Origin: Bdellovibrionales bacterium
Lineage (GTDB): Bacteria > Bdellovibrionota > Bdellovibrionia > Bdellovibrionales > JAUICD01
Direction of reading: 5' to 3'
Length of the DNA stretch: 64,000 nucleotides
Assembly (NCBI GenBank): GCA_965197425.1
Contig: CBDANC010000013.1
Location: 32,001 to 96,000 of the forward strand
Shown: piece after piece, positions 5,315 to 60,800 of the stretch
How positions within the stretch are numbered: position 1 is the first letter of the stretch
How the letters are laid out: the number at the start of each line of letters is the position of its first letter
Program-made: the position numbers and the translations under genes
The notes under the pieces: model-generated
The model's input: the letters and a program-made list of their open reading frames with translations, nothing else
Database searches by the model: none
Told to the model about the DNA's origin: nothing

Positions 5315-5441
5315 AAAGGTCTTCCGAACAAAACCAACAAATCAGCTCTACTGGTTCTTTCAATGAGCAAAATATAAAGTTTAATAATATAGCCCATTGA
5401 ATCAACTGACTTGTTATTTTTTAGCAGGCGAATTACGTTCC
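5315..5441 (+). repeat. modular palindromic element (family 2), diverged copy
   Basis: Starts aaaggtcttccgaac, contains a diverged inverted X module and ends ggcgaattacgtt. Confidence 0.75.
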
Positions 5442-5808
5442 AGTGAATCTCACAACCAACCATTCCACTAAACATTGTCCCCAGTTTGACAACAAAACAT
5501 ATTTTACCTTAATTGTGTCTCGCCTAAAGACATCATTCCGGGAGAATAAAAAATACTGGGATTTTCTAAAAAAAGTTATAGCAATGTGTATCTCGTTTGC
5601 TATGATCTTGTTTCGCCGATCCTGTAACTCTTGGTTCTTAAATTAAAGCGAGTAGAGCTGATTGCCTTTGAGTGCTTTTGTAGCATAGATGGATGAATTT
5701 TGCAATAATAACTTAAGGTTATGTAAAATGTGCGTTCCAAGAAACGGCATAAGCTTATGCCAGTCACTTTTTTGGCAACGGGGATCAGTGTTGGTTTTCG
5801 TTTTCTTC

Positions 5809-6156
5809 TTAGCTTTTCTTTTTGCGTTTTGTTTTTGGTTTAGATTTTTTCTCAATTTCTATGTTGATTTTGAATTTATGATCTTTAATAAATCTGGAAG
5901 CCTCATGCACAAAATCAACTTTATCTAGAGACTTTTTAACTTCTCCACTAATTTTGTCATATAAAGCTTTTTTAGACTGACTAGCACTCTTGATAGCTGA
6001 TTTTAATAAGTCCTTTGGAAGTTTTCTATCACTTAGAGTATTTCTTATAACTTCCTCTGTCGTAAAAACAGTGCCTGCTGCTGCTTCAATAAGATTTTTT
6101 ACAGCTTCAGAAAAGTTTTTATTGTTTGTGCCGCTTTCTTTGCGTTTGTTCTTCAT
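5809..6156 (-). CDS. hypothetical protein
   Basis: 115-aa ORF co-oriented with and overlapping the upstream SRPBCC gene. Confidence 0.6.
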   Translation of the reverse strand: MKNKRKESGTNNKNFSEAVKNLIEAAAGTVFTTEEVIRNTLSDRKLPKDLLKSAIKSASQSKKALYDKISGEVKKSLDKVDFVHEASRFIKDHKFKINIEIEKKSKPKTKRKKKS

Positions 6157-6580
6157 AAAGATCTCTCACTCGTTTGTGGCAGGAGCTCATTACGTTTGGA
6201 AGGTTAACTTCTGCCAGGGTTTTTTCTATTAAATTAGGTACAAACACTTTTAGCTGGTATTTTAGGTGATAAGTTGCCTTACACTTGTTGTCTGTTGGTT
6301 CAAGTTTCCAAAATCCAGAATTTAGTTTAAATATATTATCATCTGCTACCTCCCATGAAATCTTATTGGGAGCTTCTTTTATCATCCACAACTTATAGGT
6401 GAATGCTTTTACAATCTTAACTTCATACTCTACAAGCTGTTTGTTGCCATCAGTTTCTAGTATAATACATTTAGAAATTTCATTTACAAATTCTGGATAA
6501 CTTTCATAGTCCACCAGAATTTTGTAAAACTCATCAACAGAGCAATTAAAAATTTCAGATGTGGTAACTTCTGTCATCAA
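6119..6580 (-). CDS. SRPBCC/START-fold (polyketide cyclase, RatA/COQ10-like) protein
   Basis: ILVDYESYPEFV and NSGFWKLE motifs, ~150 aa. Confidence 0.8.
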   Translation of the reverse strand: MMTEVTTSEIFNCSVDEFYKILVDYESYPEFVNEISKCIILETDGNKQLVEYEVKIVKAFTYKLWMIKEAPNKISWEVADDNIFKLNSGFWKLEPTDNKCKATYHLKYQLKVFVPNLIEKTLAEVNLPNVMSSCHKRVRDLYEEQTQRKRHKQ

Positions 6581-6586
6581 CTTTCC

Positions 6587-7543
6587 TCAAAGGTTTTTTT
6601 TATACAACGCATGAGTAGTATCAATATACCTAATTGTACCAGTTTTTGATCTCATCACTATGGAAAATGTTTTAGCCTTTTTATTGGGTAAAAACTTCAC
6701 TCCGTCTAATAATGAGCCATCTGTTACACCTGTCGCTGCAAAGATAACATCATTTCCCGCTAATTCATCTATTGTGTAAACTTTATCAAAATTTGTTATG
6801 CCCATCGATCTGGCTCTATCCTTTTCTTCATCTTTAAATTTTAGTTTGCCCTGCATATCTCCATTTAAACATTTCAGTGCAGCAGCAGCTAATACTCCTT
6901 CTGGAGCTCCTCCGATACCCAGTAACATATCTATCCCAGAATTTGGATATGATGTTGAAATGGCAGCAGAAACATCTCCATCACCTATCATATGTATTCT
7001 CGCTCCAACACTTCTTACTTCACTAATTAAATCCAAGTGTCTATCTCTATCCAGTATTATAGTTGTTAGCTCTTTGGGGCTCTTACCTAAAGCTTTTGCC
7101 ACTTTGTTGATATTATGGGTTGGAGATTTTGTTATATCTATTGCACCCTTAGCTTTGGGACCTACAGCAATTTTGTCCATATACACATCAGGTGCATGAA
7201 GAAAACTACCCTCACCTCCAGCAGCTATCACACTTAAAGCACCATAACCACCATTTGCACAAATAGAAGTACCTTCTAAAGGATCCAGAGCAATGTCTAT
7301 TTTGGGGCAATTTTTTTCTGATTTACCTACGTTCTCTCCGATATAAAGCATTGGGGCTTTATCTCGTTCCCCTTCCCCTATAACTACAGTTCCATCTATA
7401 TCTAGTTTGGAGAAAGCTTCCCTCATGGCATCCACAGCAGCCCTATCAGCAGCCACAGGATCACCTTTGCCCATCCACTTTGAGCTAGCAACCGCAGCTG
7501 CCTCTGTAATCCTAACAAACTCCAAAGCCAGATTTCTGTACAT
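6587..7543 (-). CDS. glpX: class II fructose-1,6-bisphosphatase
   Basis: VVIGEGERDKAPMLYIGE, DPLEGT, GDGDV, FAATGVTDG. Confidence 0.95.
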   Translation of the reverse strand: MYRNLALEFVRITEAAAVASSKWMGKGDPVAADRAAVDAMREAFSKLDIDGTVVIGEGERDKAPMLYIGENVGKSEKNCPKIDIALDPLEGTSICANGGYGALSVIAAGGEGSFLHAPDVYMDKIAVGPKAKGAIDITKSPTHNINKVAKALGKSPKELTTIILDRDRHLDLISEVRSVGARIHMIGDGDVSAAISTSYPNSGIDMLLGIGGAPEGVLAAAALKCLNGDMQGKLKFKDEEKDRARSMGITNFDKVYTIDELAGNDVIFAATGVTDGSLLDGVKFLPNKKAKTFSIVMRSKTGTIRYIDTTHALYKKNL

Positions 7544-7661
7544 AGACCCCCTACAACTAACATACTTTGATAAGCATAATGATCTCTTTCTAAGAAGCTA
7601 TTAATATTATGCGTCAAAAAATAGTTTGTATAAAGTCTGATTAATTATAGTGTATTTATAT

Positions 7662-8219
7662 ATGGACTTTACTTTACCAAACAAAGTTACATTATCCAGG
7701 CTCATTTTAATAACACCTATATTGGCGTTTTTATATGTAGGCTCTTTATGGTCTGAGCTAACTGCTGCTGTCATATTTATAATAGCTGCTATTACTGATT
7801 ATTATGATGGATTTTTTGCTAGAAAATTAAATTTAGGTACTAATTTTGGTAAAATTTTTGATCATTCAGCAGATAAAGGGCTTGTTACTAGTGTTTTGAT
7901 AATGTTGCTTTACCTAAAAAGAATTGATCCATTTTTACTAACGATACTAGTTGTAAGAGACATCTTGGTTAATGGAATAAGAATTAGTGCTGCAAGTGAT
8001 CTTAATGTTATAGGAGCTGGCAAGTCTGGAAAGTGGAAGACTGCTTTGCAGATGAGTGCAATACCTTTGTTATTTGTAAACCCTGACAGTTTAAATTTTA
8101 AAATTTATGATTGGCTTCACCTGGCGGCTTACTATGTGTTGTGGCTCAGCGTAGTGTTCAGTATTGTGTCAGGCTTGGAATACTACAAGTTGTGGTCAAA
8201 GAACAAAACCAACCATTAG
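7662..8219 (+). CDS. pgsA: CDP-diacylglycerol--glycerol-3-phosphate 3-phosphatidyltransferase
   Basis: LPNKVTLSR, TDYYDGFFARK, FGKIFDHSADK, GKWKT; followed by tRNA-Gly. Confidence 0.9.
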   Translation: MDFTLPNKVTLSRLILITPILAFLYVGSLWSELTAAVIFIIAAITDYYDGFFARKLNLGTNFGKIFDHSADKGLVTSVLIMLLYLKRIDPFLLTILVVRDILVNGIRISAASDLNVIGAGKSGKWKTALQMSAIPLLFVNPDSLNFKIYDWLHLAAYYVLWLSVVFSIVSGLEYYKLWSKNKTNH

Positions 8220-8275
8220 TTTATGGTTTCTTGACTTACTTTGAGGGTGGTATTAGCTTTTCCAGATCATCATTT

Positions 8276-8351
8276 GCGCAAGTAGCTCAGCTGATAGAGC
8301 GTCGCCTTGCCAAGGCGAAGGTCGCGGGTTTGAACCCCGTCTTGCGCTCCA
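8276..8351 (+). tRNA. tRNA-Gly (GCC)
   Basis: GCGCAAG/CTTGCGC acceptor stem, cgcct-tgccaa-ggcg anticodon arm, GGTTTGAACCC T arm, encoded CCA. Confidence 0.95.
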
Positions 8352-8363
8352 GTTTTTACCCAA

Positions 8364-8542
8364 TTCGGAAGATCTTTAGAGGCCAGATTTGGCATCGTGT
8401 TCCAGAGCTGGGCAACCACTCAGCAAAAAAACCGACCGCAGGGAGATTATTTCAATTGGAAAATATAAAGATTTATCCCGTGAGCCAATTGAACCAAAGT
8501 AGGCATAGCCTCCTTATTTTTTGCTTCGTTCGGAAGACCTTT
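8364..8542 (-). repeat. modular palindromic element (family 2) with nested X module, reverse orientation
   Basis: Reverse complement reads aaaggtcttccgaacgaagc...ttcaattggctcacggga...gttgcccagctctggaacacgatg. Confidence 0.9.
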
Positions 8543-8593
8543 AAATTAAAATTTTTGTTGAACAAACAAGCTACCTAAAATAAAACTTGTAGT

Positions 8594-9073
8594 ATGAACT
8601 TTCAAACAACTATCAATACAACAATGGGAACTCTTGTTCTAATAGCTTCTGATAAAGGTGTAAAAGAACTACACTTTGAAAACAGAGCTTATGAAAAAAA
8701 TATTGCCATCAAAAAATCTACACAAAACCACATAACAAAAGAAGCCACAAAACAACTGAAAGAATATTTTAATGGTAAAAGAAAATCATTCAATATACCT
8801 CTGGATTTAGAAGGCACATCATTTCAAAAACAAGTATGGCAAGCTTTAAGACAAATTAAATTTGGTGCCACAATAAGCTACAAAGAACAAGCCAAAATGA
8901 TCAACAAACCAAAAGCATATAGAGCTGTGGGAACAGCTAATGGGAAAAATCCAATACCAATTATTATTCCTTGTCACAGAGTTGTATCCTCAAATGGACT
9001 AGGTGGTTTTTCAGGAGGAATGCATAATAAAGTATTTTTGCTAGACCACGAAACCAAGCACTTAAATCATTAA
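8594..9073 (+). CDS. ogt: methylated-DNA--protein-cysteine S-methyltransferase
   Basis: GTSFQKQVW, RAVGTANGKNPIPIIIPCHRV. Confidence 0.93.
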   Translation: MNFQTTINTTMGTLVLIASDKGVKELHFENRAYEKNIAIKKSTQNHITKEATKQLKEYFNGKRKSFNIPLDLEGTSFQKQVWQALRQIKFGATISYKEQAKMINKPKAYRAVGTANGKNPIPIIIPCHRVVSSNGLGGFSGGMHNKVFLLDHETKHLNH

Positions 9074-9096
9074 AAAATTTTTAGTTCGAAAAAGTT

Positions 9097-9771
9097 TTAC
9101 TCACCCTTGGAGTCAATGAACATGTTGGGCTTTATTGTGTCAACCCAAGCTTTATAACTTTCGTAGATATCTTGATTTTCAAAAGTTTTTACAGGGCCTA
9201 CATGGATAGTAAGTGTTTTGCCATATTTTGCAAACCAATTTGCTTTAGGCCAAGCTTCAAATGCGCCATCTATAAAGAAAAATAAAACTGGAGTATCGGT
9301 TTTTTTTGAAATAATATCAGCACCTTTTTTAAACATATGTATCTTACCATCTAAGGATCTTGTTCCTTCAGGAAATACCAAAAGCCAAACTTTATCTAAC
9401 TTTTTTAAGAGAGACATACATAGCATAAGAGTGTCTTGACCTTTTTCATTTCTATCAACAGGAATAGCCCTCATACAATGTTTCGAAAAAAAACTAATAA
9501 AAGGGTTAGAAAAAAAGTAATCCTTAGCAGCAGTTACATAAAGATCAAAACATCTTTTGGTAGAAACTATCGTTGTAATGGCAGGGGCATCTAGATGACT
9601 TGAGTGATTTGATATAAACAAGAGTTTGGGGTATTTGTCTAACACCTCCTCTATGTTTCCTACAACTTTCAACTTTATATAATACTTAAAAAATATTTTT
9701 TTTAACAGCTTTACAAATAAAACTCTTACCGTCACACCCACTAATTTAAAACTACTACTAAAATGTTCCAT
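9097..9771 (-). CDS. lysophospholipid (1-acyl-glycerol-3-phosphate) acyltransferase family protein
   Basis: NHSSHLD and FPEGTRS motifs. Confidence 0.88.
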   Translation of the reverse strand: MEHFSSSFKLVGVTVRVLFVKLLKKIFFKYYIKLKVVGNIEEVLDKYPKLLFISNHSSHLDAPAITTIVSTKRCFDLYVTAAKDYFFSNPFISFFSKHCMRAIPVDRNEKGQDTLMLCMSLLKKLDKVWLLVFPEGTRSLDGKIHMFKKGADIISKKTDTPVLFFFIDGAFEAWPKANWFAKYGKTLTIHVGPVKTFENQDIYESYKAWVDTIKPNMFIDSKGE

Positions 9772-9827
9772 TGATTACCTATAAACAAGATACAATAATA
9801 AGCAATGCATACTAGTGCCTCAGGATA

Positions 9828-20017: not shown

Positions 20018-20213
20018 AACATGTGTAGATCTATGTCATTAACTAGTTGCAAGTCAACCTAAAGGTCTTCTTAAAGATAAGCTAGGCTAAGTACTTATTG
20101 AGTATAACAAAAAAGCTGGCTCCCCCAGCTTTCTATGTGTAGTATAACAACTTTACTAACTAAGCTTAAGTCATTTACATTAAGTCTATAAACAATAACT
20201 ACAAGTACAATAT

Positions 20214-28219: not shown

Positions 28220-28533
28220 AAAGGTCTTCCGAACGAAGCCAAAAATAAGTGGACTTGTTCACTTTGGTTCAATTGGCTTACGAGATAAACCTTTATATTG
28301 TCCAATTGGATGAACCTCCTTTGCAGTCGGTTTTTCCAATTGAAATAACCTCCCTGCGGTCGGTTTTTTGACTGAGTGGTTGCCCAGCTTTGGAACAAGA
28401 TGCCAATCCCGTCACTAAAGGTAAGCTTAATGAGGCAAAAAACAAACAAAGCTTCACTTGATCCAACTGGCTATATTATTAAAATTTATATTTGCCCACT
28501 GAAAGAACCAGCAGAGCTGGTTTATTGGCCTCG
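28220..28533 (+). repeat. composite family 2 element with an internally duplicated X module and a second, partly inverted unit
   Basis: aaaggtcttccgaacg...ccaattgg x2...gttgcccagct...taaaggtaagcttaatgaggc. Confidence 0.9.
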
Positions 28534-28536
28534 TTT

Positions 28537-30117: not shown

Positions 30118-30254
30118 AAGGTCTTCCCCAACACTGATTGAGCCTAGCAAACAAACCGACTTGTTGGTTTTTTGCTAGGCGAATTACGTTTTGACACAGC
30201 CACTTAAAGTCTAAAACGGAACTAAGACTTTTTGGCCTCGTTCGGAAGACCTTT
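30117..30254. repeat. two converging family 2 units (Y module on +, second unit on -)
   Basis: aaaggtcttcc at left end and ggaagaccttt at right end; ctgattgagcctagc...gctaggcgaattacgtt. Confidence 0.85.
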
Positions 30255-32751: not shown

Positions 32752-32887
32752 AAAGGTCTTCCTAATGAGGCAAAAAACAAGTGGACTTGTTCACTGTTTT
32801 TAGCCGAATGGTTGCCCAGCTCTGGACACTGATGCTCATCCCGTTCCATAAAGGTCTTCCCCAAAACTGATAAGTATTGACTAGCAA
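32752..32887 (+). repeat. family 2 element (one full unit plus start of a second)
   Basis: aaaggtcttcctaatgaggc...gttgcccagctctgg...aaaggtcttcccc; abuts the pckA start codon. Confidence 0.88.
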
Positions 32888-32945: not shown

Positions 32946-33572
32946 ATGCAAACTGATTCAAATAACTTAAGAGATTCGGCTAGTGGGTTGCCTATTGTAC
33001 AGCAAAATGCCCCTGATTTTAACTTAAATGCTGTAGCGAATAATGAAATCACCCAAATTTCTCTATCAGACTTTAAAAACAAATGGGTATGCTTGTTTTT
33101 TTATCCTCTAGATTTTACCTTTGTTTGTCCAACCGAAATCATAGCATTCTCAGAAAGGGTTTCAGACTTTGAAAAGTTAAACTGCCAAGTTCTAGGAGCT
33201 TCAATAGATAGCCCATATACACATCTTGCTTGGATAAACACTCCTAGAAATAAAGGTGGACTTGGTGAAATCAAATTCCCTCTCCTAGCTGATATAAATA
33301 GAGAGTTATCTAGATCCTACGAAGTATTAAGTAGTCGCGGAGTTGCACTTAGAGGATTGTTTCTTATAAACCAAAAAGGTAAAATAGTATATCAAGTGGT
33401 TCACGATCTAGGAGTTGGAAGATCTGTAGACGAAACTTTACGAGTGCTGGAAGCTTTTCAAACACATGAAAAAACTGGAGATGTATGCCCAGCTAATTGG
33501 AACAAGTCCAACAGCACAACTATGACACCTAATCCAAAAGACTCTAAAAATTACTTTGAAAAAGTAACTTAA
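32946..33572 (+). CDS. ahpC: 2-Cys peroxiredoxin (AhpC/TSA)
   Basis: FYPLDFTFVCPTE and VCPANW. Confidence 0.93.
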   Translation: MQTDSNNLRDSASGLPIVQQNAPDFNLNAVANNEITQISLSDFKNKWVCLFFYPLDFTFVCPTEIIAFSERVSDFEKLNCQVLGASIDSPYTHLAWINTPRNKGGLGEIKFPLLADINRELSRSYEVLSSRGVALRGLFLINQKGKIVYQVVHDLGVGRSVDETLRVLEAFQTHEKTGDVCPANWNKSNSTTMTPNPKDSKNYFEKVT

Positions 33573-33765
33573 AGGTCTTCGCTGAAACTGAAAGTTGCCT
33601 TGGCGAAATGCAGTGCAAAGCACAAACGTAGCCAAGGCACTTTCAGTATCAGAGTTGCCCAGCTCCGGAACACGATGCTGATCCCGTAACTAAAGGTCTT
33701 CCAAATGAGGCAAAAAACAAGGACATAGTTGCCAGATCCCAGCTTGCCTGATTGCTCGAATGCCA
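33571..33765 (+). repeat. family 2 branched unit, start of a second unit, then a degenerate octamer tract
   Basis: aaaggtcttcgctgaaactgaaag...gttgcccagctccggaacacgatgctgatcccg; second aaaggtcttcc at 33692; ttgccaga/ttgcctga. Confidence 0.88.
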
Positions 33766-37750: not shown

Positions 37751-38044
37751 TTAAGCGTTCTTACATAATTTATATAGAAAAGCTCCTAGTCTATCACTTT
37801 CTTTTGTGAGGGCTTTGTGATTTATAATTTCTAGTATTGCCTGTGTTTCTCTGAGTGAACCTAAACTAGTTCTATAGAACCTCCGCCTTTCTTTGTTACT
37901 GCACTTCGTACTTCCTTCCGCAAGGTTTAGCACTATGCTAAGTATTGCTCTTTGGAACTGATTTTTAAGAGGCTCTTTCAGGTATAGTCCTTTAGAATTG
38001 TTGTAGAACTGAACAGCTAATTGATAAGTTTTAAAATTTTTCAT
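37751..38044 (-). CDS. four-helix-bundle protein (23S rRNA IVS protein / Avd-like family)
   Basis: LKNQFQRAILSIVLNLAEG...RFYRTSLGSLRETQ signature; AGGAG RBS. Confidence 0.88.
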   Translation of the reverse strand: MKNFKTYQLAVQFYNNSKGLYLKEPLKNQFQRAILSIVLNLAEGSTKCSNKERRRFYRTSLGSLRETQAILEIINHKALTKESDRLGAFLYKLCKNA

Positions 38045-38124: not shown

Positions 38125-38125
38125 C

Positions 38126-39538: not shown

Positions 39539-39579
39539 ACTTCTAATTGATTTAACACATACAATACACTAGAGTCACT

Positions 39580-39704
39580 AAAGGTCTTCGCTGAAACTGA
39601 AAGTTGCCTTGGGGAAATGCGGTGCGAAGCACAAATGTAGCCAAGGTACTGTCAGTGTCAGAGTTGCCCAGTTTTGTAGGTATAAATACGACAAGAGTCA
39701 CTAA
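39580..39704 (+). repeat. family 2 branched unit plus W tail module
   Basis: aaaggtcttcgctgaaactg...gtgcgaagcac...gttgcccag, then tgtaggtataaatacgacaagag. Confidence 0.85.
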
Positions 39705-43742: not shown

Positions 43743-44113
43743 AAGGTCTTCCGAACGAGGCAAAAATAAGGAGGCTATGCCTACTTATTTTGCCGAGTGG
43801 TTGCCCAGCTATACACTTGTCATCAAACTCATCTTAAAAGGTCTTCAAATGAGTTCAATAAGGTGAGCTTGCTTGCCTTTTGAACTCATTGTTGCCCAGC
43901 TCTGGAACAAGATGCTGATTCCATTCCATAAGGCCTTCCAAACGAGGCCAATAAAGTGAACTTGTTTGCTTTTTGGCCAAGTGGTTGTCCAGCTCTGTAA
44001 CACGATGCTGATCTCGTTACTCAAGGTCTTCCGAACGAGGCAAAAATAAGGAGGCTATGCCTACTTATTTTGCCGAGTGGTTGCCCAGCTCTGGACACAA
44101 TGCTGATCGTGTT
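43743..44113 (+). repeat. tandem array of four family 2 units with different internal hairpins
   Basis: AAGG(T/C)CTTC starts at 43743, 43838, 43930, 44023; each unit followed by GTTG(C/T)CCAGCT. Confidence 0.93.
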
Positions 44114-45591: not shown

Positions 45592-46740
45592 TTACACGAA
45601 TTGCTTGTTTTTGATTTTTTCTAAAATAATTTTTTCAGGCATGATTGGATCTTTTGGATCAACCATAAACAGTGCTTGTTGCTCACACCTTCTCTTATTC
45701 TTCAAAAGCCATTTTAAGATATTAGTTAATTTTTTATTTTTTTTATCAATAAAAAATGGGTCATTTTTCATGGCATCTCTTGCTTTTTTTAAAGCCCTCA
45801 CTTCTGATAGATCTTTTTCTTTTACTTGGTAATCATGTAAATCATAATTTTTAACATCCTCAGGTAACAGACCTAAGAAATGTACTTTAGGGGCAGAAAA
45901 ATCCTTATTTCTTATCAATGAAGCAGCAGATCCTGCCTTAAGAGTTCTATATATATTTTGCAGTGTGTATGCATCTAAATCTCCAAAAAAATACATTGGA
46001 ATCTTTAACTGATCCTGGATTAATTTACACCATCCTCTCACTGCGTTACTGGGTACACCTTGAGCCCCCATCAATATGCACTTATTACGTTTAGTAAAGC
46101 CGTTACTTACCAGGGTATTCGCAGTACCCTCTGATTCTACTATTAAAGCAAAATCTATTTTACCTTTAGTGGATAACTTTAAGCTCTGTGGTCTGTTTTT
46201 GGGTTGAAATGGGCTAGTGCCCAGTGTGCTTAGATCAATTTTTGCCTTTGCGCCATCTGACAGAGTCTCAGTTACAACTAGTTGTTTGGAAAAAGTCTGA
46301 CCACCTCTGTCATTAGCAAAGCAATTCATCTCTTCCCTATAAACCTCAAGCATCTCAGTTATAAAATCCACAGTTGAATCACTTTCACTTTGTTCCTGGA
46401 AATCCAATGGTCGTAATTTAGGATTATTTTTCACTTCACCCTTAGAAATATAGTAAAGCTCCCTCTTTGTGTTAATTGCACCTGTTTGAATATTTCTAAT
46501 TAGGATCTCTAGCATAAAAATAGCTCTTGAAATTTTTTGAACAGAGGCTACATTTAATTCACTTCTAACTTTTTTACCAGCAGGTGTAAGATACCCAAGC
46601 CTAGTATCATATATTGAGTTGTCTAAAGAACACTTAGTGGCCTCAAGCACTGGTCTTCTTGCCTGTTCCAAGTCCTTTAACAGAGTTTCACAAATTTTCT
46701 TGGAGTAACCTATTATGTCCAAGCCCTGTTTATTCGCCAT
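45592..46740 (-). CDS. top6A: DNA topoisomerase VI subunit A (Spo11-like)
   Basis: TKRELYY catalytic-Tyr motif; TOPRIM LIVESEG, GxP, GDLD. Confidence 0.88.
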   Translation of the reverse strand: MANKQGLDIIGYSKKICETLLKDLEQARRPVLEATKCSLDNSIYDTRLGYLTPAGKKVRSELNVASVQKISRAIFMLEILIRNIQTGAINTKRELYYISKGEVKNNPKLRPLDFQEQSESDSTVDFITEMLEVYREEMNCFANDRGGQTFSKQLVVTETLSDGAKAKIDLSTLGTSPFQPKNRPQSLKLSTKGKIDFALIVESEGTANTLVSNGFTKRNKCILMGAQGVPSNAVRGWCKLIQDQLKIPMYFFGDLDAYTLQNIYRTLKAGSAASLIRNKDFSAPKVHFLGLLPEDVKNYDLHDYQVKEKDLSEVRALKKARDAMKNDPFFIDKKNKKLTNILKWLLKNKRRCEQQALFMVDPKDPIMPEKIILEKIKNKQFV

Positions 46741-48355
46741 GCTTTGCCTTTAGATCTGATAATTTATTTCTAGCATCCATTAATATCTTTTCAGCAGACT
46801 TGGTATCCTTCGATAGAAGTTTTAAAAGTCCTGCCTCCGCTTTGGCATGTCTGGCTTTAGGTGCTTTTAGTATTCTCACAAGCCCATCTACCAATATAGG
46901 ACCAAACTGTTCGATATGCTTTACTTTTTTCTCCAACTCGTGAGCCTTAATCTCGGCTCTTATATGACGAGATAACTTTTGTCCTGTCTGCATCAACGCT
47001 CTTCTTATTTCTTCCACTAGCTCTTCACTTGCGTCTATTGTCTCTTTTGAGGCATTTTTAAATTTTATAAATGGCGACACAACACTTATAGCGAACACAT
47101 AAGGTCCACATGGTACGGAGTTTTTAGATTGTGTTAAGCCATAGGCTTTCCAGTTTACTGACTCAATAGCTTTTGTTATGGCACATGATGCCTTATCAAA
47201 CTGTAGCGGTACTCTGTTCGCAAATCTCAATACTTGTACTGTGCTTTCTTGTCCTTGTCCTTCACCTTCATTCACTTTGTTTTTAAACCTGGATATTGCA
47301 ACTTCGATGGCAACAGGTTTGTGGTCACATACCTTTGGTTTTCTGGTCACGACACTAAAAAAATCTATCTCTCCCAATCTCTGAATACTTTTAGACAAAG
47401 CTTTCTCGCCGATGGTAAGCACAGATTTAGTAGATGGTGCTAATAAATCCGTATTTTGAAAAACTCTATAAACTTTTTTTATTTCCTCTTCTGATAAAAA
47501 TTGTTTTTCTAAAATCTTTTTAGAAAGGCCATTTTTTACCATTTCAGCTATAACATTGTCTGTCACTCTAGAAAAACCCTGCTTTAGCCAAAGTTTTAGT
47601 TTAATTTTTCCAACAATCTGGCGGTAAGCAATAAACTCACCAAGTTTCATAGTGTGAGGATGAGGTAGAGTAGCCGATGGTATCTCCGGTACAATATCAG
47701 AAACTCTGTCTATTGCTACTTCCTCATTGTCTAAAATTTTATATCTTATAGAAGCATGCGGGTTCACTAAAGCTGTTCCCTCTATATAGGTTTTTAAACC
47801 TCCATCTCCATTTAACCTAACCCTTCCGTCTATTTGAAACTGTACATTTATCCCAGTTTGTTTGTGATCTTTAGTTGTCTTGTCTCTAACCGTTCCTTTA
47901 TTATTTTTTATGTCTACATCTACTCTCATTACTACAGCTTTTTTCATTCTAGTGGTTTTGCTCACAACCATAGCCCCTTTAGCATTGGTCAATTGAGCCC
48001 ATGTCGTTGCAGCAGATATACCTATCCCCTGCTGTCCTCTAGAACACTGTCCTTTCCCAAATTTTGAAGAAGCTAGGTATTGACCAAATACCTTTACAAC
48101 ATCCTCTGCCTCAAGACCAGGACCGTTATCTGATATCTTTATCAAAAGAACATCTGCACTTTTACCAAAACCCTTTTTTACAAGCTCAATTTCAATATCT
48201 ATGTTAGGCAAAATTCCAGCTTCTTCACAAGCATCCAAGGAATTATCCACAGCTTCCTTCAAGGTAGTCAGAACTGCCTTTGTAGGAGAGGAAAACCCAA
48301 CCTGTTGCAGGTTTTTTGCAAAATACTCAGCTGTGCTACTTGATACTATCTTCAT
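46730..48355 (-). CDS. top6B: DNA topoisomerase VI subunit B
   Basis: KEAVDNSLDACE, DNGPG, SSKF, SRGQQGIGIS, RFANRVPL, SKETI. Confidence 0.92.
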   Translation of the reverse strand: MKIVSSSTAEYFAKNLQQVGFSSPTKAVLTTLKEAVDNSLDACEEAGILPNIDIEIELVKKGFGKSADVLLIKISDNGPGLEAEDVVKVFGQYLASSKFGKGQCSRGQQGIGISAATTWAQLTNAKGAMVVSKTTRMKKAVVMRVDVDIKNNKGTVRDKTTKDHKQTGINVQFQIDGRVRLNGDGGLKTYIEGTALVNPHASIRYKILDNEEVAIDRVSDIVPEIPSATLPHPHTMKLGEFIAYRQIVGKIKLKLWLKQGFSRVTDNVIAEMVKNGLSKKILEKQFLSEEEIKKVYRVFQNTDLLAPSTKSVLTIGEKALSKSIQRLGEIDFFSVVTRKPKVCDHKPVAIEVAISRFKNKVNEGEGQGQESTVQVLRFANRVPLQFDKASCAITKAIESVNWKAYGLTQSKNSVPCGPYVFAISVVSPFIKFKNASKETIDASEELVEEIRRALMQTGQKLSRHIRAEIKAHELEKKVKHIEQFGPILVDGLVRILKAPKARHAKAEAGLLKLLSKDTKSAEKILMDARNKLSDLKAKHGE

Positions 48356-48474
48356 AGTTTTACAATACTTTGTTTTTTTACTTGTTACTATAATTAGATA
48401 CTATCTATGTAGCAACACTAGACCAGAGAAAAGTTCATTTATGGCAATCTAAAGTGGGATAAAAGTCTCGAATT

Positions 48475-48753
48475 TTAAGAATCTACCAAATCAATAATAA
48501 TTTCTGCCATAGTTCTAGTACCTTTGAGGGTGTTACATTTCTTGCAAGATAAAACTACATTGGACTTTGTACTCTTACCACCTCTTGCAATGGGAACCTT
48601 ATGATCCATGGTTAAATCTTTTCTTTCAAATTTTAAACCACAGTAATAGCAAATGTTTTCTTTGACCTTCCACCAATTAGACTGCCTAAGTGCCTTTGCC
48701 TTTAGACGCTCTTTGGTAATGTGGGCTTTGTCCATCTGCTGATAATAACTCAC
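48475..48753 (-). CDS. small HNH endonuclease
   Basis: CYYCG...MDHKVPIARGG...NVVLSCKKCN. Confidence 0.88.
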   Translation of the reverse strand: MSYYQQMDKAHITKERLKAKALRQSNWWKVKENICYYCGLKFERKDLTMDHKVPIARGGKSTKSNVVLSCKKCNTLKGTRTMAEIIIDLVDS

Positions 48754-48819: not shown

Positions 48820-49110
48820 ATGACCACGGAAGAAATAAAAAAAAAGATATTAAACAATTTTGTGGTTACACCACCCGCAGTGGTTACACCACTCGTAGTG
48901 GATACTCCACTCGTAGTGGATACTCCACCAGTAGAAGATATTGCATTAGAGGTAATAGATCAAACAGGAATGGGTAACAACTTTATGATAGTTTTTAGCA
49001 ACTACAAATTAAATAAATCCAGATTAGAGACACATAGAGAAATTATGAAAATCTTTGCAGATGAATTAAAAAGTGGAGAAATCCACGCGTTATCAATTAA
49101 TATGAGGTAG
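48820..49110 (+). CDS. BolA/IbaG family protein with an in-frame hairpin-repeat insertion
   Basis: SRLETHR, EIHALSI; adjacent to grxD. Confidence 0.8.
   Translation: MTTEEIKKKILNNFVVTPPAVVTPLVVDTPLVVDTPPVEDIALEVIDQTGMGNNFMIVFSNYKLNKSRLETHREIMKIFADELKSGEIHALSINMR
48862..48933. repeat. 4 x 18-bp hairpin repeat (family 1) inside bolA
   Basis: gtggt-tac-accac x2 then gtgga-tac-tccac x2 at 48862, 48880, 48898, 48916. Confidence 0.92.
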
Positions 49111-49177
49111 AATAGAAAATGAGTTTGATGACATGTGTAGTGGTAGGGTATTGGCTGTGAGGTCCACCGGGAAGGAG

Positions 49178-49336
49178 CCACTTGGCCAAAAAACCGACCG
49201 CAGGGAGGTTATTTCAATTGGAAAAACTGACTGCAAAGGAGGTTCATCCAATTGGACAATATAAAGGTTTATCCCGTAAGCCAATTGAATCAAAGTGAAC
49301 AAGTCCACTTGTTTTGACTTCGTTCGGAAGACCTTT
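49178..49336 (-). repeat. family 2 element with duplicated X module, reverse orientation
   Basis: Near-identical to the reverse complement of 28220-28380; ends gaagaccttt just before the grxD RBS. Confidence 0.9.
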
Positions 49337-50574: not shown

Positions 50575-50669
50575 AAAGGTCTTCGATGAAACTAACAAGC
50601 TGGATTGGTGAAGTGCAGGGCAAAGCCCAAACGAAACCAGAACAGTTTGTTAGTCTCAGGGTTGCCCAG
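50575..50669 (+). repeat. family 2 branched unit (diverged)
   Basis: aaaggtcttcg...actaacaagctg...gggcaaagccc...cagtttgttagt...gttgcccag. Confidence 0.82.
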
Positions 50670-50827
50670 AGAACAGGCTCCCGTGAGTTATATGTTTTGC
50701 CAAGATTTTATAGGTAGAAATAAAATTTTGTTATTGCGTGTTACTCACAGATCATCCCCTCGCTTGATCAAGCAATCCACAAACCGGTAATCAGGCAATT
50801 AGTCAGTCAGGCAAACAGGGTCAGGTA

Positions 50828-52465: not shown

Positions 52466-52590
52466 GCGTGCCTTCAAATTTGTTAGCATTGTAGGCGTAG
52501 TACAAGCAAGCAGGTAGACAGTCATCAGGCAACCAATCCAGGTCCGGTATCTAGCAGCTGCATTTTCGTTTTGTTTGACTCTCGGTAAAA

Positions 52591-53015
52591 CTATGTATTT
52601 TTCCATAATTTATATAAAAAAGCTCCTAACATATCTGCTTCCACCATTAAGAGTTGGTGGTCTATGAGATCTAGTATAGCTTGTGTTTCTCTGAGCGAAC
52701 CAAGGCTTATTGCATAGAACCTTTTTCTCTCTTTGGCAGTTGGTTGGTTCAATTGGCTCACGGGATAAACCTTTATATTTTCCAATTGAAATAAACTCCC
52801 TGCGGTCGTTTTTGCACTTCCTTCTCCCAACATTGATTGAGCTTGCCAATAAAGTGACTTGTTGCTTTTTGGCAAGCGAATTACGTTCCGACAATGTTTA
52901 GCACAATGCTTAAGGTAGCTCTTTGGAATTGATTCTTGAGTGGTTCTTTTAAGCAGAGTTGTTTTGAGTTTTGATAAAACTCTTTAGCTATTTGGTATGT
53001 TTTTAATTTTTTTGG
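52591..53015 (-). pseudogene. second four-helix-bundle gene, disrupted by two family 2 modules and lacking a start codon
   Basis: KKLKTYQIAKEFYQNSKQLCLKEPLKNQFQRATLSIVLNI|65 bp|GEGSAK|66 bp|PTAKERKRFYAISLGSLRETQAIL aligns by eye with 37751-38044. Confidence 0.88.
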
Positions 53016-53121
53016 AAAAATTAAAGATATTACAGGTGCCTGATGGTTGAGCCCAGATACTGATATCAGATCTCTGAGTGCCAGATCCCAGATTTAATCA
53101 GGCAATCAAGACAAATAATAT

Positions 53122-53346: not shown

Positions 53347-53466
53347 AAGGTCTTCACTGAAACTGAAAGTTGCCTTGGTGTAATGATTGTACGAAGTACA
53401 AATGAAGCCAAGGTACTTTCAGCTTCAGAGTTGCCCAGCTCCGGACACTGATACCGATCCAGTTAC
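53347..53466 (+). repeat. family 2 branched unit
   Basis: aaggtcttcactgaaactgaaagttgccttgg...gtacgaagtac...gttgcccagctccgg. Confidence 0.88.
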
Positions 53467-53506
53467 TGCTAGAACAAGTTACACTTAATGTCAACCTTTA
53501 GTGGAG

Positions 53507-56090: not shown

Positions 56091-58288
56091 TAGCTTGCCT
56101 TCTTAACAATGGGTTTTGCTGCGCTTGTAGTTTTTGGTTTTTGAATTGTTGGTTTTGCTCTACCTCCTGTTCCTGTGAACAACGTTCTTGGAATTTTCAC
56201 ACCTTTCTTTTCGAAATCTTCTATAAATGTGGGTATTCTTCCGAGCGCTTGGAACTGTCCGATAATTTTTCTGTTTTTATCAAAACCTTCCTCTTTAAAT
56301 TTAAAAATTTCGGTTAGTGTGACATTATCCCCAGACATACCGCAAACTTCTGTAATACTTTTTACCTTTCTACTTCCGTCTGACATTCTGGAAATTTGCA
56401 CAATTAGGTTAACTGCATTTGCAATTTGTTTTCTTATAGCTTTTGCTGGAAGTTCCATACCTGCCATAAGGCAAAGAGTTTCAACCCTACTTACCGCCTC
56501 TACTGGATTATTGGCATGTACAGTTGTCATTGAACCATCGTGACCTGTATTCATTGCTTGTAGCATATCTAGTGCTTCGCCACCTCTACACTCACCTACT
56601 ATAATTCTATCTGGTCTCATTCTTAAACTGTTCATGATAAGGTCTCTAATAGTCACACTACCAGATCCTTCTAAGTTAGCGGGTCTGGTCTCTAGCCTTA
56701 CTACATGAGTTTGTTTTAGTTGTAGTTCTGCTGCATCTTCTACGGTAATAATTCTTTCTCTTGCAGGGATAAAGCTAGATAGAGTGTTTAGGAGTGTTGT
56801 TTTACCAGAACCTGTACCACCAGATATAAGCAGGTTAAGTCCGTTCTCCACGCAGATTTTCAAAAAATCTATCATAGGTTGAGTTATGGAGCCCCACTCT
56901 ATGTAATTTTTAATTACCACTGGTTTTTTTGAAAATTTTCTTATGGTAAGAGATGGTCCATCTATCGAAATAGGTTCAATCACTGCATTAACACGACTAC
57001 CGTCTTTTAGTCTTGCGTCTACGTAGGGAGAAGTTTCGTCAATTCTTCTTCCTAATGGGGTTACAATCCTCTCTATTACTTTTCTTAAGTGAAAGTTAGA
57101 GGTAAAGGTAGTGTCACTTAAGGAGAGTTTTCCACTTTTTTCTACAAACAGCTGATTATGACCATTTACCATAACCTCGGTTACGGTGTTGTCTTCAAGT
57201 AGATCTTCCAAAGGCCCTAGTCCTAGTGACTCATCCAAAATTTCTTTTATAAGGCGGCTTCTTTCATCTCTTGCACCACCTTTTAGTTCTTTATCAACTA
57301 AGGTTGATACCATTTGTTGTACTTTTCTTCTTAGAGCTTTTTCTTTTTCAGGATCTCCTTTGGTATCTGTTTCACTTTTTCTTAAGTCCATAGCTTGTAT
57401 AAGTTCTTGGTGAAGCCTTAGTTTTAGTAAGTTTCTAGGATTATTTTCTGAGCCACTAGTTGTAGTTTCTTTTTTTGTGTCATCAGATGTTGCTCTGCTT
57501 TTGATGTTAGATACACCTTTATTGAGTGACTTTAGTTTTGTTAGAAAGTTTCCGCTTGTAACTTTTCTTACTAAATTGTGATAGGATGTACTAACTTTGG
57601 CTTGTGAGTTTAATGCTACAAATGGCATTCCTCTTTGAAGAGCTGTGGCACATAGTTTGTCATCTTGTTCAATTGCTCCCAAAATATTTTTTTTCAGAGA
57701 ATTTTGGATTTGTTGAGGAGATAGAGAGTTTGCACTAACTCTATTAGCTACTACACCTATTAAATCCCCTGGTATAGTAGCAGCAGCAAAGTCACCTAGC
57801 AGTCTTGAGGTTTGATTAACTGCAAGGCTATCAGATCCTGTTACAGTTAATATTAGGCTTGCGTGCTTTAAAAATTCTTGTTGAAGTTCAGAAAGAGTGG
57901 AACCCACATCCACAACTATATACTTAAACATAGTACTCAAAGAGCCAATGGGTCTAGCTATTAAATTAGGATCAACGCTTAGGGTTTCATCTTTTGATTT
58001 AACAGCTCCAACATAAAAAATTCCTGAAGCATGTTTTGTTATAAGTGAAGGTATTGTTTGAGCGTTAATTTTGCCGTTAAATTTGGCCAATTCACTTAGA
58101 GTTCTTTTGGCCATAGTGCCTAATATAAAGTTTTGATCACCGCATGACAGTGCATCAGCATCTATTAACAGGGTATGTTGTTTTAGTTCTTTTACTATAG
58201 TTGCAGCAAAATTTGCAGCAAACACACTTTTACCAACACCACCTTTACCACCAACTACAACTATCAAATGACACTTCTGATCTATCAT
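56090..58288 (-). CDS. tadA: fused TadZ/CpaE (MinD-like) and TadA/CpaF pilus ATPase
   Basis: N-terminal GGKGGVGKS; C-terminal GGTGSGKTT, LRMRPDRIIVGECRG, MNTGHDGSMTTVHAN. Confidence 0.9.
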   Translation of the reverse strand: MIDQKCHLIVVVGGKGGVGKSVFAANFAATIVKELKQHTLLIDADALSCGDQNFILGTMAKRTLSELAKFNGKINAQTIPSLITKHASGIFYVGAVKSKDETLSVDPNLIARPIGSLSTMFKYIVVDVGSTLSELQQEFLKHASLILTVTGSDSLAVNQTSRLLGDFAAATIPGDLIGVVANRVSANSLSPQQIQNSLKKNILGAIEQDDKLCATALQRGMPFVALNSQAKVSTSYHNLVRKVTSGNFLTKLKSLNKGVSNIKSRATSDDTKKETTTSGSENNPRNLLKLRLHQELIQAMDLRKSETDTKGDPEKEKALRRKVQQMVSTLVDKELKGGARDERSRLIKEILDESLGLGPLEDLLEDNTVTEVMVNGHNQLFVEKSGKLSLSDTTFTSNFHLRKVIERIVTPLGRRIDETSPYVDARLKDGSRVNAVIEPISIDGPSLTIRKFSKKPVVIKNYIEWGSITQPMIDFLKICVENGLNLLISGGTGSGKTTLLNTLSSFIPARERIITVEDAAELQLKQTHVVRLETRPANLEGSGSVTIRDLIMNSLRMRPDRIIVGECRGGEALDMLQAMNTGHDGSMTTVHANNPVEAVSRVETLCLMAGMELPAKAIRKQIANAVNLIVQISRMSDGSRKVKSITEVCGMSGDNVTLTEIFKFKEEGFDKNRKIIGQFQALGRIPTFIEDFEKKGVKIPRTLFTGTGGRAKPTIQKPKTTSAAKPIVKKAS

Positions 58289-58350
58289 TAACTAAATACC
58301 CCCGTACTTAGGAGTATCGGAGTATTTGTTGTTTATATGTATATTCAAAA

Positions 58351-58406
58351 GCCTGTTTGCCAGACTGCCCGATTGCCAGACTGCCGGGTTGCCTGATTGC
58401 CCGATC
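58351..58406. repeat. octamer tract (family 3) without an adjacent four-helix gene
   Basis: tttgccag actgcccg attgccag actgccgg gttgcctg attgcccg. Confidence 0.85.
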
Positions 58407-58412
58407 AACTAC

Positions 58413-58625
58413 CTCTTGTTGTATTTATACCTACACCAGGAAACAGTCGTTCGGCCTGAAGATGTCTTGGTTGCATTTGGACTTCGTCTTATAAAGGTGA
58501 GTTTAATGAGGCCAATAAATCTGGCTTCGCCAGTTGGTTCAATTGGCTTACGGGATAAACATCTATGTTTTCCAATTGAAATAACCTCTCTACGGTCGGT
58601 TTTTGCCCGAGTGACTGTTTCCTGG
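58413..58625 (+). repeat. family 2 composite (inverted W module, unit with X module) bracketed by a 19-bp inverted repeat
   Basis: ccaggaaacagtcgttcgg (58436) vs ccgagtgactgtttcctgg (58607); aaaggtgagtttaatgaggcc...ttcaattgg...ccaattgaa. Confidence 0.8.
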
Positions 58626-58702
58626 TCCAACTAAAGCTAAGGAATTTTCACATTTCACCAATTCATCTTTTAGCCTCACTAATGGACCTTTAGGACTTGA
58701 GT

Positions 58703-59332
58703 CTAGCCATGATAAGTTAAATTTTGAAGTAAGTTTATAAATTCATCGCTCCACTTATCAAAAATATCTTTTATTGTAACTTTATTATTATGATTGGTTA
58801 GTTTATCAAATTTTTCATTTATTATTCCGCATGATTTTATTTTAGATATGATGTTTAGATTATTTGAGATATTTATGGAAAGTCCATGCATTGACACCCC
58901 TTTTTTGAATTGTAATCCTAGAAAGCCAATTTTTCCTTCGGTGGTATAGAATCCTTTTTTTTCTTGGTCAAATTCTGTTTGGCATCCAAAGTGTCCCATA
59001 GTTTGTGTTGTGCAGTTTATTATTATATCTATAAATTGCTTGATCTTAATTTTTAATTTTTTTATTGGTACTATTGGGTATATAACAATTTGCCCTGGGT
59101 TATGTATAGTGGTTTGTCCTCCTCTTTTTATTTTAAAGACTGGGATATTTTTTAGATCACTATCTAAGATATCGTCGTGATTTCCTCTTATACCTATTGT
59201 GATTACTGGATTATATTCAACTCCCATTATGTGGTAGTGAGAGTTTTGTTCTGTGAGTTTTCTTAGGTAGTTTTGTTTTTCTAAGCTTTTTTCGTAACAG
59301 ATTTTTTCAAACCAGTGTGTCTTATATTTCAT
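58703..59332 (-). CDS. lipB: lipoyl(octanoyl) transferase
   Basis: RGGQTTIHNPGQIVIYP, KIGFLG, HGLSIN, SCG. Confidence 0.88.
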   Translation of the reverse strand: MKYKTHWFEKICYEKSLEKQNYLRKLTEQNSHYHIMGVEYNPVITIGIRGNHDDILDSDLKNIPVFKIKRGGQTTIHNPGQIVIYPIVPIKKLKIKIKQFIDIIINCTTQTMGHFGCQTEFDQEKKGFYTTEGKIGFLGLQFKKGVSMHGLSINISNNLNIISKIKSCGIINEKFDKLTNHNNKVTIKDIFDKWSDEFINLLQNLTYHG

Positions 59333-60450
59333 TTGTCAAATGATGCACTAACTCTACTATTGCCTATGGATCTAATTTTAGAAAGTCTTCCTTTTTGTAG
59401 TTTAAGACTTGATAGTCCTTTTGCAATTTGCCTGGTTGAAACATTGGATTCTAGTTTAAACACTATTTTATCTTTATCAAAAATGTATTCTTTGAAACTA
59501 AAGACTTCTGGAAAAGTTTTTCTAAAAACTGTTTTTACTTCTTCTACTCTGGGGTAGGTTAGATCTCCTCTTAGGGATAGGTAGATGATGTTAGCGCCTA
59601 TTTCCCCGTTATTCCATGAGGCCACAATTGCTTTAACTGTGGTATCTATTATATCTGATGATACTTTCAAAAGAGTTTCTTTTGTTAGAGCTTCATCTTT
59701 ATTTCTAGAGGTTCGGTCTACAATTTCTCCTATGATCTTACCGTCAGTAACTGAGATAGCGTAGAAGTTGCTTTTGATAACAGCTTGATTTAATTTTCTT
59801 CTATTTTCAGAAAATTTTATATCTCCGACCAATACTAGATCTGATTTAAATTTTTTACCTAATTTAATGTAGTCATTGGTGCTGAATGATGTTTTTTCAG
59901 GGGTTTTATTTTTGCTATCTGGGGTCATTATTTTTATTTTTCTACTAGCTGCTGAAAACTTTTTTGTAAAATTATCAACTACTGTGTTTGATAAATTATT
60001 GGAAGAATCTAGCCACCATGCATAGATCACGCCCTTCATTGTATCTGTGATACTGATCATAGGTAGAATGTTAAGATTATCGCTATTAACCTTAAATAGA
60101 CCACTTTGTTTTAAAATCTGTCTAAGATCATCGTATGAAATTTTGAAGGTTACCAACATTTGATAACCCTTATTACTTTTTAATAACTTGCCGCTGTTGA
60201 TAAATGGTATAAATCTATTGATCTTATTTTTCATAATATCGCTGACTGTGTCTTTGTTACTACTAAATCTTTTTCCTCCAATAAAACTTTTTATAGCATC
60301 CGTAGCTAGTTTTTGTGTCATTTTTTCTACTATTTCTTTTTTTGCTTCTTTTGGATCAATTAGCCCACTTGTGCCTTTTAAAGCTATAGTTTCTAGACAA
60401 AAAGCTTTGTATGAAACAAAGAGTATGACAAAAAATATTTTGCTTTTCAT
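59329..60450 (-). CDS. hypothetical secreted protein
   Basis: GGAG RBS before ATG 60450; signal-peptide-like N-terminus. Confidence 0.7.
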   Translation of the reverse strand: MKSKIFFVILFVSYKAFCLETIALKGTSGLIDPKEAKKEIVEKMTQKLATDAIKSFIGGKRFSSNKDTVSDIMKNKINRFIPFINSGKLLKSNKGYQMLVTFKISYDDLRQILKQSGLFKVNSDNLNILPMISITDTMKGVIYAWWLDSSNNLSNTVVDNFTKKFSAASRKIKIMTPDSKNKTPEKTSFSTNDYIKLGKKFKSDLVLVGDIKFSENRRKLNQAVIKSNFYAISVTDGKIIGEIVDRTSRNKDEALTKETLLKVSSDIIDTTVKAIVASWNNGEIGANIIYLSLRGDLTYPRVEEVKTVFRKTFPEVFSFKEYIFDKDKIVFKLESNVSTRQIAKGLSSLKLQKGRLSKIRSIGNSRVSASFDK

Positions 60451-60457
60451 ATATCTC

Positions 60458-60800
60458 CAGGTCTTTCTCAACACTGATTGAGGCTAGCAAAAAAACCGAC
60501 TTGTTGGTTTTTTGCTAGGCGAATTACATTCATCAAGGTCTTCCGAATGAGGCAAAAAATAAGGAGGCTATGCCTACTTTTTTTTGCCGAGTAGTTGCCC
60601 AGCGTTGTAACACGATGCTGATCCCTTTCACAAGGTCTTCCAACGAGGCCAACAAAGTGAACTTGTTCGCTTTTTTTCAATTGGCTCACGGGATAAACCT
60701 TTATATTGTCCAATTGGATGAACCTCCTTTGCAGTCGGTTTTTCCGATTGAAATAACCTCCCTGCGGTCAGTTTTGGCCGAGTGGATGCCCAGCTTTGCA
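60458..60800 (+). repeat. three tandem family 2 units (Y module, simple hairpin unit, unit with duplicated X)
   Basis: aggtctttc, aaggtcttcc, aaggtcttcc starts; gttgcccagc and gatgcccagc ends. Confidence 0.92.

Follow-up and report, generated by a model that had tools for sequence, protein, structure and literature searches.

How do short hairpin elements that carry no gene of their own come to be scattered, stacked and reshuffled through a compact bacterial genome? The question is raised by a 64,000-nucleotide (nt) stretch of a Bdellovibrionales genome (G000:C13:32001-96000, hereafter the window), for which the original prediction, made from the letters alone, proposed a dense family of modular, nestable palindromic elements. 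Its source, G000, is a 1.60-Mb assembly in 15 contigs with 35% GC, rated 99.4% complete; it was compared with G001, a genome of the same genus in a single contig of 1,600,901 bp (1,600,000 bp read), rated 93% complete. These two 1.6-Mb genomes encode about 1,400 proteins each, about 1,030 of them common to both, with a median protein identity of 68%. Two sister-genus genomes (G002 and G004) and read contigs from related strains (X3, X4 and X5) complete the comparison. The family is real, active and restricted to the genus; its fold is conserved and its one-ended signature is unusual.

Each unit consists of a left end motif (L), a hairpin, a right end motif (R) and a spacer, in this order, and units are stacked head to tail; exemplars of L and R lie at window positions 43743-43751 and 43800-43810. 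The window holds 19 exact L and 8 exact R motifs, and all 14 predicted loci were recovered in place, with 13 L..R units against a mean of 0.06 and a maximum of 1 in 100 shuffles. At four of these loci (5315, 30117, 52744 and 58413) the element is composite and has no plain L..R pair. Genome-wide, exact L occurs 194 times in G000 against about 11 expected and exact R 106 times against 0.2, and 163 element clusters occupy 23.4 kb, the same motif set finding 2 clusters in the reversed sequence. A bare core predicted at 20061 is indeed present as an L motif (20062-20070, plus strand), but with about 11 chance copies expected per genome it may be a remnant or a coincidence, and alone it is indistinguishable from chance.

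The spacer after R measures 27-30 nt in 21 of 21 inner junctions, and W, predicted as an extra module, proved to be one type of this spacer. A second end pair, L2/R2, exists beside the first: R2 closes 10 of the 12 units that begin with L2, and R closes 98 of the 100 that begin with L. The proposal that constant ends enclose interchangeable hairpins agrees with normalised mutual information over 112 units, by which the outer arms are tightly coupled to each other (0.68 against a null of 0.28), the inner hairpin more weakly (0.44-0.45 against 0.20-0.22), and inner hairpin and spacer combine almost freely (0.30 against 0.28). Neighbouring units are mostly unlike (9 of 11 in G000, 22 of 25 in G001), so the arrays are not simple local duplications; most clusters are direct arrays of a single orientation, with inverted pieces in a minority. 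X, predicted as an extra module, is an independent 66-nt insert whose fold is no better than that of shuffled sequences (z -0.3 and -0.4). It also lies inside four four-helix-bundle genes, and Y, a hairpin of about 65 nt, has been inserted separately in the window's copy.

No unit carries a gene. The elements are mostly intergenic, with 5 of 163 clusters in G000 and 8 of 120 in G001 falling within long open reading frames (ORFs), and the genes that adjoin them in the window, where 58 ORFs were scanned, are mostly housekeeping ones. As a separate observation on first L ends genome-wide (window positions 30118, 32753 and 33572 are examples), 11 of 94 adjoin a stop codon and 17 of 94 an opposite-strand ATG, as raw counts. 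A sequence resembling a ribosome-binding site may be provided by the reverse of L.

The exact G000-type unit does not occur in G001, which has a family of its own with the same ends and spacer length and different stems, in 120 clusters covering 21.0 kb. From its 90 distinct long units, 52 were taken for the covariation analysis that had been suggested as a check, with the structure drawn from the alignment. The signal is strong: 93.7% of cells are paired, 18 of 23 pairs show two-sided changes, and covariation reaches 0.478 against 0.227 in shuffled alignments (0/500) and at most 0.112 in slid controls, a figure that leans high because the sequences are related and the structure was derived from them. 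A more independent test of the fold is the match across species. A covariance model built from G001 alone recovered the four long window units (E 3e-10 to 2e-6), 24 units in 20 G000 loci that had been chosen for long units, and 10 genome-wide; a sequence-only profile from G001 found no match in G000. The compensatory changes imply that the fold is under selection in each of the two species. A search of Rfam, likewise suggested earlier, returned no family match at the gathering score, only tRNAs and one chance match at E 0.8.

The shared end pattern occurs only in the two genus genomes among 351 genomes of the order. The G000 pattern was found in 0 of 40 relatives and the G001 covariance model in none of 29 others, with 136 candidates scored per genome. 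Metagenome and viral scans yielded nothing beyond 5 single, non-folding matches, blastn against phage and plasmid sequences returned none, and 30 single matches scattered over genomes were read as chance. The literature on EPAR-type repeats and on four-helix-bundle genes with repeats held nothing relevant; the family, being nameless, was not searched by name. In the sister genus, G002 and G004 (in a sample biased to four-helix-bundle loci) contain a dense modular hairpin family of unrelated sequence but the same grammar, namely a fixed head, nested swappable hairpins, direct arrays and variable 3' truncation; its loops, of the purine-N-A or G-N-N-A type, lie on the head strand.

Movement is visible at strain level. 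A 440-nt X4 contig and an X5 contig, from two studies, run from position 49097 straight to 49334 across five foreign letters, which means that X4 and X5 lack the entire element at 49.1-49.3 kb. The strains in this comparison of filled and empty sites are about 96% alike, and the empty allele, read by eye, has a bolA-like gene with a different, shorter end. Together with the shuffling of modules, this bears out the earlier description of an active or recently active cassette-like system. Less securely, because repeat-derived joints are common, other strain joints hint that different units follow a shared flank; within G000, a duplicated locus has one unit in one copy and three in the other between the same flanks. 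Among 729 syntenic junctions of G000 and G001, obtained with simple ORF calling, 64 are filled in G000 only, 10 in G001 only and 9 in both, the last exceeding chance sharing (p 3e-5).

The two ends of the elements behave differently. The 5' end is sharp: information is at most 0.24 bits at positions -14 to -3 and 0.3-0.7 at -2 and -1, and 1.5-2.4 within L, by which the alignment itself is defined; the junction falls at the same base across unrelated host contexts. The dinucleotide before L is T-rich and G-poor (TA 43, TC 24 and CA 11 of 96; TA 30 and TT 21 of 72), with G at 3 of 288 and 5 of 216 bases from -3 to -1. A BLAST-based 5' boundary overshoots, and no more than 42 of 96 clusters have it at a distance of 8 nt or less from L. 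The 3' end is ragged, with 59 of the 96 single-orientation clusters stopping from -1 to 156 nt past the last R and 37 inside a partial next unit. Of twelve paralog pairs, four are filled/empty pairs of L-R type (one in G000, three in G001), three concern X, one Y and one array size; the remaining three, which match element against element, were not used. None of the four L-R pairs shows a target duplication. In them the leading AA is part of the element and between 0 and 35 host bases have gone from the 3' side (about 25-35 in two pairs), and microhomology and host deletions are present at the junctions. A role of the spacer as guide or target duplication was set aside, its weak excess in G000 (p 0.008-0.03) having no counterpart in G001.

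These junctions bear on one rival proposal, that of an ordinary family of miniature inverted-repeat transposable elements whose DDE transposase is now lost or unassembled. A few direct repeats of 8-11 bp and a fragment in G000 that we take to be IS1595-like could be relics of such a family, and its members would be short, structured and mostly intergenic, as here, and modular in the manner described for BOX (PMC3049150). Yet L and R do not form an inverted pair, a duplication is lacking at most sites, the 3' ends are ragged, and both rve (PF00665) and DDE_3 (IS630, PF13358) give 0 matches in G000 and G001; we consider this origin highly improbable.

A folding strand, precise 5' joining and loose 3' resolution form the pattern expected of HUH chemistry, in which a 3'-OH attacks a 5'-phosphotyrosine (PMC8266576). 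We tentatively prefer, at somewhat less than an even chance, non-autonomous one-ended insertion of single strands through a predicted HUH-like activity, combined with recombination that shuffles modules. What we infer here is the enzyme, its cut and a single-strand intermediate. The enzyme would bind the folded L strand and cut just before L, and the 5' end of the element would be joined to a host 3'-OH following two positions that are T-rich and G-free. Copying would normally halt at the next L, often early or late, with sealing by microhomology that would sometimes cost host bases on the 3' side. The spacer end may resemble an acceptor, so that further units could add behind it; inner hairpins and spacers would be swapped by recombination through the shared ends and stems, and X and Y would be passengers, entering elements and genes by a similar route. 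Parts of this scheme have precedents in IS91, for which unequal ends, one-ended events without duplication and failed termination are described (PMC13181058), and in the model of excision and rolling-circle amplification proposed for BIMEs (PMC3333891).

Some of the junction evidence could also come from host repair. In that scenario a lost transposase seeded the family, no enzyme is active today, and template switching at hairpins and gene conversion spread the units. It would suit the microhomology and host deletions, the differing unit content at the same flanks in duplicated loci and strains, and the failure to find a mobiliser in single-contig G001 or in G000; STAR elements, moreover, are described as expanding locally by no known mechanism (PMC3532100). 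It sits poorly with a 5' junction that is base-exact in unrelated host contexts, with so many syntenic junctions filled in G000 alone (64) or G001 alone (10), with a whole element present or absent between such similar strains, and with selection on the fold in both species. Spread by host repair alone is in our view unlikely, though it deserves real weight.

Returning to single-strand insertion, the nature of the folding strand is a further guide. A purine-N-A triloop closed by C-G is found in 45 of 51 long G000 units and in 55 of 98 in G001, where a purine-N-N-A tetraloop occurs in 17 more. In both species a purine-N-A internal motif faces another across the stem (one parse required the motif), and conserved G.A mismatches lie in the stems. 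According to PMC3201870, a d(GNA) loop with a C-G closing pair is exceptionally stable in DNA. The L strand folds better on average than its complement and shows 67 G.T against 17 A.C pairs (p 3e-8).

Target-primed reverse transcription also leaves one fixed end and one truncated, microhomology-sealed end. An opposite-strand transcript, reverse-transcribed from a host 3'-OH, could in this way give the fixed start and the truncated ends; the G.T excess fits RNA, and G000 contains 20 four-helix-bundle (PF05635) genes, which we take to be Avd-like. This route appears quite improbable: reverse transcriptase (RVT_1, PF00078) gives 0 matches in G000, G001 and G002, the better-folding strand is the would-be cDNA, the loops are mostly triloops and non-GNRA tetraloops, the elements match no Rfam family, and G001 has elements but no four-helix-bundle gene. 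Absence from G001 was also the ground on which four-helix-bundle genes were set aside as the mobiliser.

Several observations weigh against the preferred one-ended insertion by an HUH-like activity. Direct repeats of 8-11 bp bracket 3 of 100 G000 clusters and, in addition, the site at 39581 (runs of at least 7 are seen in 3 of 100 clusters in G000 and 0 of 69 in G001). The junctions have no fixed target tetranucleotide, just the two-base T-rich bias, and orientation in G001 is not biased with respect to replication, 68 of 120 clusters lying on the leading strand (p 0.17). The purine loop lies on the opposite strand in 26 of 61 short G000 hairpins, and the G.T excess, which also fits RNA or one-strand deamination, cannot alone separate DNA from RNA. 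Nor was a matching enzyme found. Y1_Tnp (PF01797), present in 13 of 21 genomes searched, is absent from G000 and G001; the RAYT model NF047646 and Rep_trans (PF02486) give 0 matches in both, and six Y1/RAYT-locus seeds from relatives have no phmmer match. Y2_Tnp (PF04986) is silent in 5 genomes and Rep_1 (PF01446) likewise gives 0, the controls of both being equally silent. A gene flanked by the same ends had been named as something to look for, and no gene is flanked on both sides by elements in both genomes.

The wider search gave the same picture. Y1_Tnp is absent from G002 too, and a scan for the HUH-plus-tyrosine motif found no match. The IS110 domain PF01548 is absent from G000 and G001 and PF02371 from G000, where alone it was searched; tyrosine recombinase (PF00589) gives 0 in both and 2-7 in five relatives, and DUF559 gives 0 in G000. 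No small Ssn-type GIY-YIG gene was found, the one GIY-YIG protein of 610-650 amino acids in each of five family genomes being read as UvrC. As had been anticipated, no mobiliser of any family tested is evident in either genome, on a proteome screen that was partial and comprised a Pfam scan of 40 of the approximately 1,030 shared proteins and about 410 basic G001 proteins read by eye. With G000 in 15 contigs, one of which ends in an array, a mobiliser gene could be unassembled there. Other candidates were discarded: Rpn and Cas1 since their families are not common to G000 and G001, a small HNH gene as having one syntenic copy, and a 94-amino-acid protein beside elements that is single-copy in 8 of 17 genomes and gave no Atlas result.

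A small serine recombinase (G000:C12:4669-5388; G001:C1:1095237-1095929) is the one site-specific recombinase that the searches of the two genomes found. Its gene shares an operon with dcd, follows a conserved res-like site and, in G001, lies about 55 kb away from the GC-skew terminus. Were the recombinase to excise units as circles and integrate them via a 2-bp AA core, its 78% identity between the two genomes (median 68%), the restriction of its close homologues (E <1e-38) to four repeat-rich genomes of 26 (kin, not independent) and the few units between short direct repeats with AA at their ends would be in keeping. Against such a role, empty paralogs have no AA at the site and host bases are lost; the gene has its own res-like site upstream, in the dcd operon; the G002 copies lie beside ankyrin genes and their ends are unlike the repeats; and a double-strand recombinase explains neither the ragged ends nor selection on a single-strand fold. 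We judge it decidedly improbable as the mobiliser. As an aside, both genus genomes are without PF00589, hence without XerC/D, and keep one serine resolvase, which may replace XerCD/dif in chromosome dimer resolution.

Mechanisms outside the five considered here retain a small residual probability. Beyond one-ended insertion itself, a broader proposition is possible but rather doubtful: that this is currently active single-stranded mobile DNA, whose mobiliser lies outside the Y1/RAYT, Y2, Ssn, IS110, tyrosine recombinase, reverse transcriptase and rve/IS630 DDE families and reads a fold of DNA-specific, non-canonical motifs rather than a sequence, and that it has given rise, in two genera of a single bacterial family, to element families unlike in sequence but alike in grammar. 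The conserved fold with its base-exact 5' end offers a defined substrate. The search space for the activity is small, because each genome encodes about 1,400 proteins and has no tested mobiliser, yet elements are present or absent at strain level. If the proposition is true, a new structure-guided cutter or joiner of single strands would be of interest both for its mechanism and as a tool; should there be no enzyme, the family is a clean case of repeats spread by host repair alone.

Along the window the modules recur in many combinations. A degenerate composite on the plus strand (5316-5440) has an L end, a short-hairpin remnant and a Y tail. The element at 8364-8541 (minus strand), preceded by a tRNA gene (8276-8348), consists of L, a short hairpin with X in its T-run, R, a spacer and a partial next L; that at 28221-28536 (plus) has a short hairpin with an internally duplicated X between L and R, then a spacer and a partial L2 unit, and closes with an inverted remnant at about 28498-28536. 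Both the nesting of X in the T-run and its internal duplication had been predicted. Joints suggest that the locus at 28221-28536 holds other content in X3 and X5. At 30118-30253 (plus) an L that starts at a stop codon is followed by a Y hairpin (30129-30190, z -4.9), a spacer and an inverted partial unit, and the orthologous G001 junction is empty (gap 0). Beside the start codon of pckA, 32753-32870 (plus) comprises L, a short hairpin, R, a spacer and a partial Y unit; in X3 and X5 its left flank is joined to a Y-type unit.

Long-hairpin units, all on the plus strand, are found at 33572-33720 (unit 33572-33663, DNA fold z -4.9, covariance model E 3e-9, with a spacer and a partial unit), 39581-39704 (with a W-type spacer), 50576-50670 (E 2e-8, spacer lost) and 53347-53470 (E 3e-10, with a spacer). 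An 11-bp direct repeat (39571-39581 and 39694-39704) brackets the second of these and is single in the empty G001 site. The array at 43743-44110 (plus) holds four short-hairpin units and three inner spacers, units 1 and 4 being the same and 2 and 3 different. The composite at 58413-58680, assigned to neither strand, begins with an inverted W spacer and an inverted hairpin piece, followed by L2, a hairpin with X, and R2 (58494-58622). At 60458-60830 (plus) a Y unit precedes an L-short hairpin-R unit, a spacer, a second such unit with X in its hairpin, and a spacer.

The strain-variable element at 49098-49335 (minus) has L, a short hairpin with X, R2 and spacers, and lies in the last codons of the bolA-like gene. 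This gene also carries a separate repeat, an 18-bp palindromic unit occurring in clusters of 2-4 (window 48862-48940 and about 4030, 4730 and 5255). Of its 22 clusters in G000, 16 are in ORFs (gcvP, bolA-like, obg-like), consistent with in-frame inserts of 6 residues; G001 has 0 copies. The four-unit insert in bolA is absent in X3, X4 and X5, and this repeat, active at strain level and with no known mobiliser, is presumably comparable to the RPE coding insertions of Rickettsia. At 52744-52890 (plus), a four-helix-bundle pseudogene has received X (66 nt) and, in a separate insertion, Y (about 65 nt). PF05635 matches in the window lie at 37751-38044 and 52590-53030, among 20 in G000; the gene is flanked by degenerate heptamer repeats, multi-copy in G000, G002 and G004 and absent from G001, and looks like a mobile gene without a transposase.

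Other features concern the genomes at large. Contigs C1, C4, C9, C10 and C11 of G000 have almost no L motifs; a second rpsJ (82% identity) lies on C11 and repeats of the sister-genus type on C4 and C11, and these five contigs are likely foreign. C9 has an ORF that we take to be piggyBac-like and C10 ORFs that are presumably phage-like. G001 has a 15-member family of proteins of about 1,000 amino acids that is not shared as a family with G000, and about 20 genes presumed Rpn-like with two presumed CRISPR-like arrays and Cas1-like genes, of families not in G000. In the window (45592-48753) genes for Topoisomerase VI A and B adjoin a 92-amino-acid HNH gene that is syntenic in G001.

Among known mobile systems, IS200/IS605 elements insert 3' of a fixed tetra- or pentanucleotide and have both ends precise. 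Their orientation is tied to the lagging-strand template (PMC6006769). In contrast, G000 and G001 have no Y1 TnpA, the target bias is limited to two T-rich bases, the 3' ends are ragged, and orientation in G001 shows no preference for either replication strand. IS91/ISCR elements are closer, with one fixed and one variable end and no target duplication, and the single-strand intermediate would be a further likeness; the present units, however, are gene-less and 95-125 nt long, have no fixed target tetranucleotide, and have a far end that is mostly cut short where that of IS91/ISCR is read through.

In REP/BIME families, as described in PMC3333891 and PMC8266576, imperfect hairpins whose mismatches are conserved lie between genes in their hundreds, form tandem arrays with linkers of varying kind, and differ in copy number from strain to strain. 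The elements resemble them in the imperfect stem with conserved mismatches and in being intergenic, tandem, variably linked and strain-variable. The comparison drawn in the original prediction nevertheless holds only as an analogy, because the GTAG tag, the inverted pairs and the tnpA-REP gene are missing: logos around L show no GTAG-type tetranucleotide 5' of the hairpin, the arrays are direct, and no tnpA-REP gene flanked by repeats was found in G000 or G001. Units measure 60-99 nt plus spacer against 20-50 nt for REP, and neighbours mostly differ, unlike the tandem BIMEs of a single locus, which are well conserved. SRM/NTS are likewise oriented hairpin repeats, recognised as single-stranded DNA by Ssn according to PMC11893778, but the small repeat-flanked Ssn GIY-YIG gene was not found here. 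Integron cassette arrays and targets of IS110 and its bridge RNA are set apart by their recombinases, which the searches of these genomes given above did not find.

In architecture the nearest relatives are elsewhere. STAR of Staphylococcus aureus, as described in PMC3532100, combines a GC-rich constant motif in direct repeat with recurring sequences of at least 40 bp at intergenic, species-specific loci, by a mechanism that is unknown; a constant motif in direct repeat with recurring inserts of 40 bp or more is found here too, a likeness of architecture only, the sequences being unrelated as far as the published consensus shows (PMC3532100). In STAR each locus has spacers of its own that stay stable within a lineage, whereas the hairpin types described here recur genome-wide, mix and change between close strains. 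BOX and RUP of Streptococcus pneumoniae are also modular and structured, vary in module number and nest in one another, but have terminal inverted repeats and target duplications (PMC3049150), neither of which is the rule here. The means by which modular intergenic repeats, STAR, BOX and BIME among them, spread is an open question (PMC3532100, PMC8266576). Although each of the known systems has defining features that they lack, the elements described here work like REP/BIME and IS91 and are built like STAR and BOX.

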